Part shown: positions 21,001-24,000 of the stretch, one piece after another
How positions within the stretch are numbered: position 1 is the stretch's first letter
Layout: every line of letters begins with the position of its first letter
From: Desulfobacterales bacterium
GTDB lineage: Bacteria; Desulfobacterota; Desulfobacteria; Desulfobacterales; UBA5616
DNA: 64,000 nucleotides
Assembly: GCA_046483495.1 (NCBI GenBank)
Contig: JAWODC010000040.1
Coordinates: 56,510-120,509, forward strand
Direction of reading: 5' to 3'
Made by a program: the position numbers

Positions 21001-24000
21001 GAAGCTGCATCGGATTACCGTTTCATAATGCGTCAAATGGAGCATTCCCCGTATGGCAGCCGTTGCGGTATTCAAGATAGGGATATAAAAGCGGCGAAAG
21101 ACGAAAAGTTCGAAACATAACCGAGGAGCGACAGAGAAAAATGGCGGAACTGATCCTGTACAACCAGTTGGTCAAGGGAATGCATGCTTTCACCCCCCGC
21201 GAAAAGGGGCGCGTCAAGCTCTTTACCTGCGGACCCAGCGTATACCGGCGCCAGCATCTGGGAAATTACCGTACATACCTGTTTGAAGACGTTTTGCATA
21301 AATACTTGGAATACAAAGGCCTCGAGGTCAATCGGGTGATCAACTTCACCGACATCGAGGATAAAGCCATTCGAGAGGCCCGAGAGAAAGGCACCAGTGT
21401 CGAAAACCTCAGGCGACCCGTAGAAGAGGCTTTTTTCAACGAATGCGCTATGCTGAAGATTCGCCTGCCGGAAAATATTCCGCGCGCCTCCACAAGTGTG
21501 CATTCCGCCGTGGACCTTATTGAAAGCCTGATCGACAGGGGCCATGCCTATTGGCATAAAGGGGAGGCTTTTTATGATCCCTTGACCTTTCCGGGCTTTG
21601 GAAGGATTTATGGCCTGGACATGAGCCGCTGGCCTGAAAAGAAGATCCGTTTCCGGCAGGACACGTATCCCGGCCAACGGTGGAACTTGGGTGATTTCAT
21701 TCTCTGGCACAAACAAAAAAATGTCGAAGCGGAACCCTTCTGGGATACCGAAATCGGCCGCGGCCGTCCGGCCTGGAATATCCAGGATGCGGCGATGATC
21801 CGGAAGCAGCTCGGATTCGAGATCGATATCCACACCGGCGGCATCGACAATCTTTTTCGGCATCATGACTACACCATGTCCATCATGGAGGGTGCATCCG
21901 GAAAACGGTTCTGCCCTTGGTGGCTGCATGGCGGTCACCTGCTCGTAAACGGCCGAAAAATGTCAAAATCAACTGGGAATGTCGTCTACCCTGAACACTG
22001 CATGGATCAGGGATTTGCACCCCGGCATATCCGGTTTTTCCTTCTGTACGGTCCCTATCGGGACAAGCTGGATATGCGCGATTCCGTTATGCATGAACGG
22101 GCCGGATATCTGGATCGCGTGCGGCGCCTGGTTCACAGACTATGCACCGGCGTTGCCGAACGCGCCGGGAAATGCGATGCACATCCGGCCGCGGATGTAA
22201 AAGCCGCCTTCGAGTCGGGCATGGACAACAATCTCGATGTTGCCGGAGCTTTCGATGCAATGACGGATCAGCTGATCCGGGCGGTGCATATCGATGCGTC
22301 GACAGGCATCGACTCCCGGAAGCGAGAGGCGCTTCGCACTGCACTATCGGATGTGGATAAGGTGTTTTGCGTACTCAACATCGACTCGTCAGACGGGATG
22401 AAATAAAATCGGCGGCCGTTGGTAATGACCCCGTACAGGAATTCGAAACAGATCGGTGCAGCAGGCTTAAAAACAGCATGAATATTATCGAGGTGCGGAA
22501 TACCGTGAAGCGCTTCGGCGGCTTTGCCGCCGTTGACGGCATTAGTTTTCATGTGAAAAGCGGCGAGTTCTTCGGCGTCCTCGGCCCGAACGGAGCGGGC
22601 AAAACATCGGCCATTCGAATGATCTATGGCTTCTCGCCCGTGACCAGCGGAGAAATGCGCGTTTTCGGCCTCGACATCAGGACCGATTGGCGGACGATTC
22701 GTTCGCGTCTGGGGGTATGCCAGCAGGAAAACACGCTGGACCCGGACTTGACGGTTGAACAGAATCTTTTGCTGTATGCACGATATTTTGAAATGAAACG
22801 GTCACGGGCCCGGATGCGCTCTGCGGAACTGCTTCAGTTTTTTGCGCTTACCCATAAACGCAACGCAAAAGTCATGGAACTGTCGGGCGGACTGGCACGA
22901 CGGCTTCAACTCGCACGGGCGATGATGCCGGAGCCCGAACTGCTGATTTTAGACGAGCCGACAACGGGGCTCGATCCGCAGTCCAGGCACCAGGTGTGGG
23001 ATAGGCTTTTCGGACTCAAAAAGCAGGGACTGACCATGCTGCTGACGACCCACTACATGGATGAAGCCGAAAGTCTTTGTGACCGGCTTCTGATCATGGA
23101 TCACGGAAAGATCATTGCCGAGGGCCGGCCGCAGGAGCTGATCACCGATCACGCGGGCGAGAGTGTCATCGAGATTCATGGTCCGAGTAAAGAGCTCAAA
23201 GCCTTTATTCGTGACCGCAGCGTGATTCATGATGATCTGGGTGAACGAATGATTATCTACACAGAGGCCCAAGGCGAATTGGAGCATGAGATCCGCCGAA
23301 CGTACTGCATGGAATCATGTATCTTTCGCGCGGGGAATCTTGAGGACGTCTTTCTCCGTTTAACCGGAAGGGAGCTGCGCGAATGAACCGGGTCGATTTT
23401 GCCGCCATATCGCTTCGCTTTCGGCATGTCTGGTTCAGGAACCTGATTACTTACCGCCGCATCTGGCGGGTCAACTTCCTGGTGCCGCTGCTGGAGCCCG
23501 GGTTTTACATTCTGGCCTTCGGGCTGGGGTTTTCCGGGCTGATCGGCAATGTATCCTATGCCGGTCTTCGATTGGAGTATACGCAATTCATGGCCCCTGC
23601 TCTGGTGGCCACGGCCTGCATGTGGAACTCCTTTTTCGAGACGTCCTACACGTCTTTTGTACGCATGTACTACCAAAAGACATTCGACGGCATTTTAGCC
23701 ACCCCCATGAGTTTGGAAGAGATCATCATAGCGGAAATTGTATGGGCCGCATCAAAAGCGGCGGCCGCGGTGACCGTGATGCTGGCCGTACTCGTCCCCA
23801 TAGGGTATGCAATGTTTCCATGGGCGCTTATGTGCATTCCGCTGGCCTTTTTGGGCGGGTTGGCCTTTGGGGCCATCGGCATGTATTTTACCGGAATCAT
23901 TCCAACCATTGATATGTTCAATCTGCCGATCTTCTTATTCATTACACCGATGTTTCTGTTTTCGGGCACGTTTTTCCCTGTCTCGGGCATCCCGGATTGG

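Follow-up and report, generated by a model that had tools for sequence, protein, structure and literature searches.

A stand-alone CysRS-derived ligase with intact ATP motifs and a rebuilt zinc pocket: a candidate adenylate-forming enzyme of altered specificity

What does a third CysRS-like gene do in a genome that already encodes a canonical CysRS? As the initial annotation had held, the gene is the third of its kind. Three proteins of this Desulfobacterales genome match PF01406 strongly: the canonical CysRS of 481 aa, a CysK-CysRS fusion of 773 aa and a stand-alone protein of 421 aa. The gene of the last one lies in the window, by which we mean the whole 64-kb stretch of DNA that was analysed.

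21141..22406, + strand: open reading frame for the CysRS-derived ligase (421 aa); the coordinates include its stop codon

We propose that this ligase is an active adenylate-forming enzyme for which a change of both amino-acid and acceptor specificity is predicted. We assign this reading a probability of about 0.4, and its general part about 0.75.

The only Pfam domain in the ligase is tRNA-synt_1e (PF01406, aa 17-319, E 1.7e-72), and DALR_2 is not found at E<=0.01, in agreement with the initial annotation. The NCBIfam model cysS (TIGR00435) is matched over positions 1-396 of 466 with 288.8 bits, below its cut-off of 340. Six further family members reach 260.7-315.6 bits, so all seven tested stay below the cut-off. 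The AF2 model (pLDDT 91.3, pTM 0.91) has the CysRS fold and stops after a four-helix bundle. Its top fold matches are CysRS (8qhp, TM 0.87; 1u0b, 0.84), followed by MshC (3c8z, 0.79). The anticodon domain is indeed missing, as the ends of both the cysS match and the model indicate. Up to the helical bundle, fold and domain order are like those of canonical CysRS (1LI5, 1U0B, 8QHP; TM 0.81-0.87), with HIGH-type and KMSKS motifs, equivalents of C28, T68, W205 and H234, and 57 conserved positions in common. Unlike canonical CysRS, the ligase has no C-terminal alpha/beta anticodon domain, and its pocket and CP hairpin are changed.

Residue equivalences come from phmmer, which aligned positions 5-377 of the query with chain positions 3-362 of the E. 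coli enzyme 1li5. Motifs were counted in the 120 best homologues of the ligase, at 50-100% identity, and the contrast set consists of 129 non-family CysRS representatives in the similarity range of the ligase. PMC7563103 gives C28, C209, H234 and E238 as the zinc ligands of E. coli CysRS.

21228..21239, + strand: CGPS, aa 30-33; C30 corresponds to E. coli C28, the first zinc ligand, and is kept
21255..21266, + strand: HLGN, aa 39-42; the ATP-binding HIGH motif, here of the HxGN type
21342..21374, + strand: NFTD..DKAIR, aa 68-78; T70 corresponds to T68 and K75 to K73; position 78 (K76 in E. coli) is not lysine
21774..21788, + strand: WNIQD, aa 212-216, replacing WHIEC; W205 kept as W212, H206 changed to N213, E208 to Q, zinc ligand C209 to D216
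21858..21875, + strand: RHHDYT, aa 240-245, replacing PHHENE; P233 changed to R, E236 to D, N237 to Y, zinc ligand E238 to T245; zinc ligand H234 kept as H241
21957..21971, + strand: KMSKS, aa 273-277; second ATP motif

The ATP motifs had been described as intact, and the homologues bear this out. HxGN is present in 119 of 120 family members and is also the commoner form in ordinary CysRS (98/129 representatives). KMSKS is found in 117 homologues and TMSKS in the other three, while CGPS occurs in 118, two rows being gapped, and in 80/80 proteins of the DPANN sister group introduced below. The ligase keeps all elements for binding ATP and the alpha-amino acid backbone: CGPS, HxGN, T70/D71, K75 and KMSKS.

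The zinc site is different. The replacement of two ligands, and its fixation in the relatives, hold in the larger sample: WN[IVL]QD is carried by 119 homologues and WSIQD by one, which puts D at position 209 in all 120, and RHHDY[TNI] is found without exception (120/120). The non-family representatives, in contrast, have C at position 209 in 128/129 and E at position 238 in 126/129. Across 46 aligned members, C30, G31, P32, S33, H39, G41, N42, T70, D71, D74 and K75 are invariant, as are W212, Q215, D216, R240, H241, H242, D243, Y244, M274, S275, K276 and S277; K273 of KMSKS is conserved to at least 90%. Nineteen positions carry residues that are invariant within the family and seldom seen outside it. 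Ten of them surround the pocket (F28, S33, N213, Q215, D216, I220, R240, D243, Y244 and T/N245). The CP domain holds eight and the SC fold the remaining one, whereas the helical bundle has none.

We conclude that the ligase probably joins an amino acid other than cysteine to its target, because the zinc pocket, which in CysRS recognises cysteine, is rebuilt and the ATP machinery is intact. The pocket would offer Cys30, Asp216 and His241 together with a free position at the former Glu238, with Asn213, Gln215, Arg240, Asp243 and Tyr244 as new invariant residues, and may hold a retuned metal or none. The amino acid selected would most likely not be cysteine but perhaps one that is small and either polar or charged, and it would be activated as aminoacyl-AMP. 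Cysteine is still a possible substrate, since C30, H241, W212 and T70 are kept, Asp can bind zinc, MshC activates cysteine using just three protein ligands, and the full-length protein P0217, which passes the cysS cut-off at 427.9 bits, has a natural D at position 209. According to PMC5660078 and PMC7563103, translation or aminoacylation is lost in mutants of E. coli CARS (C28D, C28/209D) and of human CARS2 (C78/257D), which strengthens the case that the ligase is not a CysRS. The best explanation is that it is no longer the cysteinyl-tRNA synthetase of the cell. It is an accessory gene, with a canonical CysRS encoded in addition in 17 of 18 carriers. In carrier G113 (97% complete, 410 contigs), no canonical CysRS was seen.

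The family is bacterial, tight and monophyletic (support 100), and its stem measures 0.59-0.78 substitutions per site. In both trees, which leave out MshC, it lies closest to short CysRS from DPANN archaea (support 96 and 90). These proteins from Micrarchaeota, Iainarchaeota and Bilamarchaeum share with the ligase the length (about 400-420 aa), the missing C-terminal domain, CGPS and HxGN. They differ in intact zinc ligands (WHIEC 80/80, PHHENE 77/80), in a mostly recognisable DALR_2 (56 of 85 precomputed rows, compared with 1/120 in the family) and in passing the cysS cut-off in five of six tested cases. NCBI names them cysteine--tRNA ligase. They appear to be the sole CysRS of their genomes and are presumably working tRNA ligases. 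The initial annotation had taken the missing anticodon domain as a mark of new function. This does not hold: the loss is inherited rather than diagnostic, because the nearest zinc-intact relatives lack the domain as well.

The count of 582 family loci in species genomes was reproduced. The 4383 proteins at E<=1e-40 of the initial annotation could not be. Among the best 150 matches, only 5 of 135 full-length 50%-cluster representatives carry the signature and the rest are ordinary CysRS, so 4383 cannot be a family count. Of 80 loci, 41 belong to Thermodesulfobacteriota and 27 to Spirochaetota, and the gene is carried by sulfate reducers and anaerobes of sediments. The distribution is patchy: within the class, 13 of 151 genomes have the gene, and G072, a genome of the same genus, lacks it. 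A DNA comparison with G072 gives a single match of 132 bases, too diverged for synteny. No family member was seen on plasmids (630 records) or phages (19 records), where no match reaches 60% identity and those listed, at 28-32%, are annotated cysS.

The thiolate-zinc pocket and the CP hairpin next to the acceptor site are the two places that hold the invariant changes specific to the family. The hairpin and the helical bundle map as follows.

21630..21710, + strand: CP-domain hairpin WPEKKIRFRQDTYPGQRWNLGDFILWH, aa 164-190; family-specific, basic, almost invariant
22146..22376, + strand: C-terminal helical bundle, aa 336-412; weakly conserved, not recognised as DALR_2, no alpha/beta anticodon domain after it

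In the hairpin, WP is found in 120/120 homologues, and DTY(P)G and WN.GDF(I/V)LWH are conserved as well; P165, F171, T175, G178, W181, G184 and I187 are specific to the family. From the alignment, it would occupy the place of the CP1 motif, which in CysRS reads the acceptor stem's first base pair (PMC5389517). Relative conservation of the CP domain is 0.675 in the family versus 0.625 in the DPANN group. Conserved K/R residues are found at positions 65, 168 and 240, with K and R also within 166-172 of the hairpin, and the median pI of the family is 7.75 compared with 5.78 for the same span of ordinary CysRS. The bundle, modelled by AF2 as helices 314-336, 349-361, 367-387 and 392-409, behaves in the opposite way. 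Its pairwise identity is 0.32 in the family versus 0.47 in the DPANN CysRS, and its conservation ratio is 0.68, where the other domains reach about 0.9-1.08; these values indicate that the helical (DALR) bundle is under relaxed constraint. The acceptor would dock on the rebuilt basic hairpin and would not be chosen through an anticodon.

Downstream of the ligase lies a putative exporter.

22478..24174, + strand: NodI/NodJ-like ABC-2 exporter pair, directly downstream of the ligase on the same strand
22478..23386, + strand: ABC-2 ATPase, alternative TTG start at 22367
23383..24174, + strand: ABC-2 permease, second gene of the pair

The pair directly follows the ligase in 8 of 81 loci, namely the window and 7 of 80 others (L007, L009, L010, L012, L013, L022 and L030), in two subclades. 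An operon with the ligase is probable, but for the subclade of this gene alone. Among the 121 immediate neighbours scanned at related loci, no partner recurs across the family, and the window's double CDP-alcohol transferase is found at 0/80, which agrees with the initial statement that no neighbour is conserved. Permease orthologues of at least 52% identity occur in 5/13 carriers versus 9/138 non-carriers, but the closest ones (86%, 79% and 70% identity) are found in non-carriers. A LonC-like protease subfamily is present in 6/13 versus 5/138. As a control, the double CDP-alcohol transferase is found in 11/13 versus 51/138. Because this control is enriched in carriers too, the co-occurrence of exporter and LonC-like protease is partly due to kinship. 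Redox/thiol proteins (Pyr_redox_2, DinB_2, rubrerythrin, Hsp33) are also seen among the neighbours, each as a single case. A defence system was considered and rejected: PADLOC matches neither the ligase nor the LonC-like protein nor the permease, and the ABC ATPase has generic matches only.

A dedicated RNA partner or leader was likewise rejected. In the 64-kb window, neither ARAGORN, which may miss 8/4 or 9/3 tRNAs, nor Rfam detects any gene, and Rfam at E<=1 on 20700-21300, around the ligase start, returns nothing. Promoter and terminator scans are no better than shuffles. The upstream 300 nt of 74 loci share sequence between close relatives only. The gene has neither a conserved tRNA nor a conserved riboswitch.

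What, then, receives the activated amino acid? A precedent is MshC, the cysteine:GlcN-Ins ligase of mycothiol synthesis, which occurs with mshA, mshB and mshD in mycothiol producers (Actinomycetota). It resembles the ligase in fold (TIGR03447; 3C8Z, 8HFM; TM 0.79) but keeps both zinc cysteines and is actinobacterial, while the ligase family branches with archaeal CysRS. That the ligase is itself MshC is excluded by its TIGR03447 score of 160.3 bits against a cut-off of 485.1. Other family members score 164-189 bits, and the ligase aligns to positions 17-403 of the 411 in the model, which is a CysRS core of about 410 aa without anticodon domain. As a CysRS-derived ATP-dependent ligase of about 410 aa that has no anticodon domain and a non-tRNA acceptor, MshC (PMC2922099, PMC9437257) illustrates the kind of acceptor that we favour: a small molecule, a lipid head group or a protein. 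A substrate other than cysteine and an acceptor other than tRNA(Cys) are plausible, and in the subclade of the ligase the product would probably be linked to the NodIJ-like exporter. In its boldest form the proposal is tentative, and we hold it at less than even odds: a fourth CysRS offshoot, following MshC, CysRS* and the side activity as persulfide synthase. It would be a horizontally spread ligase from anaerobes of sediments that would use a non-cysteine amino acid on a retuned Cys-Asp-His site and a non-tRNA acceptor, with an exporter in the subclade of this gene.

The basic character of the family, the K/R-rich CP hairpin and the tRNA-ligase relatives without anticodon-binding domain fit a tRNA acceptor as well. 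The ligase might thus be directed at tRNA or another RNA, reading the acceptor arm with core and CP hairpin, and either charge the tRNA with a non-cysteine amino acid or, like Glu-Q-RS, aminoacylate some modified nucleoside. Glu-Q-RS keeps the amino-acid specificity of its parent; the pocket of the ligase is instead rebuilt. Both are stand-alone class I paralogues, and the likeness is one of analogy only, as the parent of Glu-Q-RS is GluRS, not CysRS. Glu-Q-RS (YadB) has no anticodon domain and aminoacylates something besides the 3' end of its cognate tRNA, and a stand-alone, patchily distributed gene is usual for such tRNA-modifying paralogues (PMC9437257). The SC-fold residues R298, Y306 and R307, common to all CysRS, are kept, and the cysS-passing sister clade bears the name of a tRNA ligase. 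A further precedent, which the initial annotation had left unconsidered, is CysRS* of Desulfobacterales, in which a CP1 change redirects the enzyme towards a different first base pair. CysRS* is rare, lies downstream of selC* and selB*, carries PTVS in CP1 and groups with delta-proteobacterial CysRS (Mukai et al., NAR 2017, PMC5389517). Like the ligase, it is a second CysRS copy of the same order, without anticodon domain and with changed CP1. Identity of the two is nevertheless excluded by context, motif, the archaeal sister group and the 582 species-level loci: no SelB-type domain occurs in six window proteins (ligase, both ABC proteins, CDP-alcohol transferase, flavoprotein, PRC-barrel) or in the 121 neighbours, and PTVS is absent at the CP1 place from about 270 proteins of comparison, the family having WP-x-KK there. 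Several results speak against a tRNA acceptor. There is no tRNA gene in the window, and 60 related loci contain only three, unrelated ones, among them a tRNA-Gly(CCC) 0.4 kb upstream in L025. On the whole genome, ARAGORN finds one tRNA-Cys, one tRNA-Sec and no odd extra tRNA. The helical bundle, whose role is to hold the anticodon stem, is under relaxed constraint and no longer shows a DALR_2 signature, and an exporter operon is unexpected for a tRNA enzyme. We regard this alternative as serious but on balance unlikely.

Less probable still is a back-up cysteinyl-tRNA synthetase with a Cys-Asp-His site that needs less zinc or another metal, suited to sulfidic, zinc-poor sediments. The retained equivalents of C28, H234, W205 and T68, the capacity of Asp to act as a zinc ligand, D209 in P0217 and the carrier G113 would all accommodate it, and Zur-regulated second CysRS genes are known from beta-/gamma-proteobacteria. 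Those genes, however, keep their zinc ligands and lie near zinc-uptake or COG0523 genes (Haas et al. 2009, PMC2770081). No zinc-uptake or COG0523 gene was seen among the 121 neighbours, and with zinc ligands not kept the ligase is excluded as a paralogue of the Zur type. For a mere metal swap, seven more invariant pocket changes and eight in the CP domain would be superfluous. The score below the cysS cut-off and the loss of aminoacylation in engineered C-to-D mutants (PMC5660078) also disagree with a working synthetase.

These mutants suggest another, quite improbable role, that of a dedicated cysteine persulfide synthase (CPERS-like), a natural form of the aminoacylation-dead C-to-D CARS in sulfur-rich anaerobes. 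The lysines kept in the ligase, K75, K273 and K276, are equally needed for ordinary CysRS chemistry. According to PMC5660078, EcCARS C28D and C28/209D and CARS2 C78/257D keep persulfide synthesis, which is independent of ATP and tRNA. The CPERS lysines (Akaike et al. 2017) are K73 and K76 (KIIK) and K266 and K269 (KMSK). Three of the four have conserved equivalents in the family (K75 and K276 invariant, K273 in at least 90%), the family occurs in sulfate reducers and anaerobes of sediments, and several neighbours are redox/thiol proteins. The K76 equivalent, however, is not conserved, the eight commonest variants (96/120 homologues) showing E, A, S, D, G or R, and the redox neighbours are single cases. 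Since persulfide activity needs neither ATP nor tRNA, invariant H39, G41 and N42, the rebuilt pocket and the CP hairpin would be left unexplained. A non-catalytic relic or regulatory pseudo-enzyme, as an accessory, patchy paralogue with a damaged canonical substrate site might suggest, is scarcely credible given ATP motifs, new pocket and CP hairpin invariant over 120 homologues at 50-100% identity and strong constraint after a long stem.

With respect to RNA, two stretches of the ligase ORF are matched at 100% identity by contigs from one metatranscriptome library; as DNA carry-over is possible and neither level nor strand is given, they are a weak hint of expression, and stretches that no contig covers carry no information.

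Synthetase paralogues outside translation, such as MshC, Glu-Q-RS, PoxA and the aa:carrier-protein ligases, each led to a new metabolite or modification. If the proposal of a fourth CysRS offshoot is true, the ligase would point to a metabolite, lipid or protein modification not described so far, which in the subclade of this gene the NodIJ-like ABC-2 exporter would handle. The family shows how evolution can re-engineer a zinc-thiolate selectivity site and still retain the adenylation machinery. The family is large, found mainly in Thermodesulfobacteriota and Spirochaetota, and strongly constrained. We found no published description of it in the literature, and the JGI annotation of its members as cysteinyl-tRNA synthetase is probably wrong. 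New here are the monophyletic clade, its DPANN ancestry, the 19 family-specific changes, the relaxed helical bundle and the finding that HxGN is common in ordinary CysRS. The family is directly testable, because two cultured carriers exist, Desulfoferrobacter suflitae DRH4 and 'Candidatus Marispirochaeta associata' JC231.

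The ORF at 21141..22406 (+) of the window is confirmed as a real gene, with an SD-like GAGGAG upstream of its ATG. Its 421-aa product, the ligase, is a CysRS-derived synthetase paralogue, probably recruited to another job, and it belongs to a large and constrained family. In CysRS, zinc is held by C28, C209, H234 and E238, as described in PMC7563103. The equivalent residues were read off the printed alignment of the ligase to E. coli CysRS 1li5.

Pocket residues of E. coli CysRS and their equivalents in the ligase
C28: C30, kept
W205: W212, kept
H206: N213
E208: Q215
C209: D216
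P233: R240
H234: H241, kept
E236: D243
N237: Y244
E238: T245

The HIGH motif reads HLGN and KMSKS is kept. The ATP and amino-acid-backbone sites are intact, and the side-chain pocket is rebuilt. These features hold throughout the best 120 homologues of the ligase, which are 50–100% identical to it, and the pattern of changed residues is beyond chance.

Motif conservation in the best 120 homologues
CGPS: 118/120, two rows gapped
HxGN: 119/120
WP (aa 164–165): 120/120
WN[IVL]QD: 119/120, plus one WSIQD
RHHDY[TNI]: 120/120
KMSKS: 117/120, plus three TMSKS

For contrast we used the 150 top-ranking representatives of clusters at 50% identity from a library of 1.84 billion proteins, 135 of them at least 380 aa long. 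The family signature occurs in only 5 of these 135, so the 4383 proteins at E<=1e-40 of the initial annotation must include ordinary CysRS. Its 582 loci in species genomes are confirmed by the family-specific peptide pattern GRP[AS]WN[IV]QD across 185,579 species genomes. With P0131, a library protein garbled in the pocket region, left out, 129 non-family representatives remain, and these carry C at position 209 in 128 cases and E at position 238 in 126. HxGN is found in 98 of them and HxGH in 27; HxGN is therefore ordinary in CysRS of this similarity range and not part of the oddity of the ligase.

By domain content and fold the protein resembles a shortened CysRS. Pfam places the CysRS catalytic domain PF01406 at aa 17–319 (E 1.7e-72), with weaker class I matches around KMSKS, and finds no DALR_2 at E<=0.01. 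Among NCBIfam models cysS is top with 288.8 bits, short of the 340 bits that its curated threshold demands, and the MshC model (cysteine ligase of mycothiol synthesis) reaches 160.3 bits against a cut-off of 485.1. Solved structures rank alike by sequence, with CysRS best (8qhp, 3.1e-63; E. coli 1li5, 8.7e-53) and then MshC (2.6e-37), and by Foldseek, with CysRS first (8qhp, TM 0.87; 1u0b, 0.84) and then MshC 3c8z (TM 0.79). The AF2 model behind the latter search, built on 46 family members (pLDDT 91.3, pTM 0.91), closes with four helices and has no alpha/beta domain after them.

The shortening is older than the altered pocket. In a FastTree of 150 rows the 19 family rows form one clade (support 100, stem 0.59), nested among short CysRS-like proteins (support 98) with the library protein P0156 as sister (96). 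A short IQ-TREE search under LG+C20 with 62 rows again gives support of 100 (stem 0.78) and the P0156 group as sister (SH-aLRT 90). These short relatives are recorded as 'cysteine--tRNA ligase' of Candidatus Iainarchaeum, Micrarchaeota, Micrarchaeia and Bilamarchaeum. Across 80 of them (390–445 aa) the canonical motifs persist: CGPS in 80, WHIEC in 80, PHHENE in 77 and KMSKR in 76; the cysS cut-off is passed by five of the six scored, the exception being P0267. The anticodon domain was therefore already missing in the lineage from which the family descends, and the proteins of that lineage, judged by annotation and score, still act as CysRS; the bacterial family is new in its pocket and CP hairpin. 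P0267 itself (Candidatus Micrarchaeota, 405 aa, 278.5 bits) carries the name 'class I tRNA ligase family protein', sits on a long branch and has an intermediate pocket, WNVQC and HHENT, in which N206, Q208 and T238 are family-like and C209 is kept.

A comparison of 19 family rows with 125 other rows finds 57 positions conserved in both and 19 that are family-specific (at least 90% fixed in the family, at most 10% elsewhere).

Family-specific positions, ligase numbering
Around the pocket: F28, S33, N213, Q215, D216, I220, R240, D243, Y244
First Rossmann half: R65
CP domain: F153, P165, F171, T175, G178, W181, G184, I187
SC fold: Y283
Helical bundle: none

The acceptor-side hairpin is rebuilt as well. 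Its CP stretch, WP-x-K-K-[VI]-R-F-x-x-DTYPGxRWNLGDFILWH, appears in our alignment to replace the loop directly before the conserved 'RV', the place of the CP1 motif. In CysRS this motif reads the first acceptor-stem base pair (Mukai et al., PMC5389517). Mean pairwise identities were compared between 115 family members and 80 of the short archaeal CysRS (DPANN CysRS), sampled alike.

Mean pairwise identity by domain
First Rossmann half: family 0.61, DPANN CysRS 0.67
CP: family 0.675, DPANN CysRS 0.625
Second Rossmann half: family 0.71, DPANN CysRS 0.79
KMSKS / SC fold: family 0.52, DPANN CysRS 0.57
Helical bundle: family 0.32, DPANN CysRS 0.47

Precomputed DALR_2 matches are found in 1 of 120 family rows versus 56 of 85 sister-group rows. 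Together with the domain identities this indicates that constraint has shifted toward the CP hairpin and away from the region that grips the anticodon stem; the anticodon-side domain is relaxed. The family is also more basic over the same span, with a median pI of 7.75 and net charge of +1 versus 5.78 and −10 in ordinary CysRS. The strongest alternative, that the enzyme is directed at a tRNA, we consider rather unlikely. In the window and related loci the gene was found to have neither an accompanying tRNA or Rfam family nor a conserved element upstream, and ARAGORN detects one tRNA-Cys(GCA) and one tRNA-Sec in the host genome.

Our preferred reading is an adenylate-forming ligase with changed amino-acid specificity that acts on a non-tRNA acceptor. 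The Cys30-Asp216-His241 site, ringed by Asn213, Gln215, Arg240, Asp243 and Tyr244, would pick the amino acid; the ligase would form its aminoacyl-adenylate, and the amino acid would then be passed to an acceptor held by the CP hairpin. We give this full reading a rough probability of 0.4, and regard as likely its broader core, that the enzyme is active as a ligase and differs from the housekeeping CysRS. Of the initial annotation, the observation stands and the functional reading is supported in part. Since C30 and H241 do not vary and Asp is well suited to metal binding, a metal may remain in the pocket and have one coordination position vacant. Hydroxy-amino acids are handled by zinc sites of this type in ThrRS and methanogen-type SerRS. 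Three protein ligands serve MshC in binding cysteine, and with a metal possibly retained cysteine may be the substrate here too.

A retuned CysRS is a distinctly less probable alternative. The class sample comprises 151 genomes with a completeness of 90% or more, of which 13 carry the family, the host included; the sole other genome of the host's genus has no member. A full canonical CysRS (439–585 bits) is present in 10 of the 12 other carriers. In G024 it is cut by a contig end, and in G113 (97% complete, 410 contigs) only the family member and a CysK-CysRS fusion were found, which may reflect an assembly gap or another copy doing the housekeeping job. The host's own canonical CysRS (481 aa) has WHIEC, HHENE and KMSKS. 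Five further carriers, among them two assemblies at chromosome scale as well as the isolates Desulfoferrobacter suflitae and 'Ca. Marispirochaeta associata', all have one, so that with the host 17 of 18 carriers hold the ligase gene on top of a normal CysRS. The 80 fetched loci comprise 41 from Thermodesulfobacteriota and 27 from Spirochaetota, and KSB1 and Zixibacteria are among named family proteins. Some six-frame matches to family genes in four genomes (G024, G135, G007, G077) span one or two stop codons, probably by running beyond gene ends. The metagenome protein P0217 is a full-length CysRS of 461 aa. It has the anticodon domain and, at 427.9 bits, clears the cysS cut-off, but its natural sequence reads WHIED, with D at zinc ligand C209 and E238 kept; it is relevant to the question of whether Asp could function in an active CysRS.

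Work on cysteinyl-tRNA synthetases (CARS) in PMC5660078 describes loss of aminoacylation or translation in E. coli C28D, C28S and C28/209D and in human CARS2 C78/257D; the natural C209D of the ligase is therefore the same change as one used there to abolish aminoacylation. The same mutants still act as cysteine persulfide synthases, in a PLP-dependent reaction that requires neither ATP nor tRNA but does need K73, K76, K266 and K269 (PMC5660078). That the ligase is such a persulfide synthase is improbable; its ATP site is intact. The family has the constraints of an enzyme, and a pseudo-enzyme is scarcely credible.

Our literature search found no paper describing the family. In the portions consulted, the review PMC9437257 names only CysRS* and MshC as CysRS paralogues, and PMC2922099 treats MshC as the only CysRS-type peptide ligase. 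CysRS*, a second CysRS of Desulfobacterales, also lacks the anticodon domain; as PMC5389517 outlines, its gene follows selC* and selB*, its CP1 motif contains PTVS, it occurs rarely, and in trees it falls with delta-proteobacterial CysRS. These last four traits are absent here, and we reject the identification. Zur-regulated CysRS paralogues differ in keeping the zinc ligands (PMC2770081).

The host genome has three strong PF01406 matches: the canonical CysRS, the ligase and a CysK-CysRS fusion of 773 aa (locus L002, 1063..3384 (-), = G000:C21), a CysK/PALP-type PLP domain on a CysRS body. The host's fusion shows the opposite pattern to the ligase, with WHIQC and HHENE kept, HIGH changed to GLGE and KMSKS to KIGEN; other members of its group keep HxGN and KMSKS. 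Fusion-type open frames of 760–851 aa (cysS about 335–368) occur in 11 of the 12 other carriers, and similar long frames are frequent among the matches listed in the class sample, with two matches in most genomes. An Atlas cluster of 113 members combines PALP, tRNA-synt_1e and CysS_C.

A simple ORF caller supplied the neighbouring genes, which were then clustered. The ligase was called in 73 of 80 loci and the window; the other seven, in which an overlapping ORF displaced it, were left out. No neighbour cluster recurs across the family in these 73 loci and the window, and the Pfam domains of 121 directly adjacent proteins, each 110 aa or longer, form a mixed set. Only one link is tight: a NodI/NodJ-like ABC-2 pair that immediately follows the ligase gene in the window and in seven loci (L007, L009, L010, L012, L013, L022, L030). 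In 6 of 81 loci a LonC-like protease is encoded no more than 10 kb away; these loci come from three lineages and two phyla (Thermodesulfobacteriota, Spirochaetota).

Genes near the ligase in the window
15200..17671 (-): LonC/LonB-like protease, 823 aa
19734..20858 (-): FAD/NAD(P) disulfide-oxidoreductase-type flavoprotein (Pyr_redox_2), divergently transcribed from the ligase
24260..25792 (+): membrane protein, 510 aa, containing two CDP-alcohol phosphatidyltransferase stretches and PssA-like in its second half
25904..28018 (+): 704 aa, protein-L-isoaspartate O-methyltransferase (263.7 bits, above cut-off) with a C-terminal part weakly similar to erythromycin esterase (EreB/EreD)

Occurrence in the class sample
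Permease orthologue (at least 52% identity, fragments included): carriers 5/13, non-carriers 9/138
LonC-like subfamily: carriers 6/13, non-carriers 5/138
Double CDP-alcohol transferase, control: carriers 11/13, non-carriers 51/138

Because the control neighbour is enriched in carriers too, exporter and LonC-like protease are leads only. Identities among the LonC-like relatives mirror those of their ligases, and ClpS with a long upstream gene adjoins the ligase in three Spirochaetales loci (L038, L066, L085); protease and ClpS may reflect a protein-quality-control theme or chance. Orthologues of the double CDP-alcohol transferase (at least 52% identity) occur in 62 of 151 genomes, a common gene not tied to the ligase. 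The flavoprotein is weakly similar to the 'N-terminal to SelD' family, CoA-disulfide reductases and type III sulfide:quinone reductase, with scores well short of the cut-off in each case. In a salt-lake metatranscriptome library, two contigs agree at every base with 21333-21566 and 22228-22414, a weak hint that the ligase is expressed.
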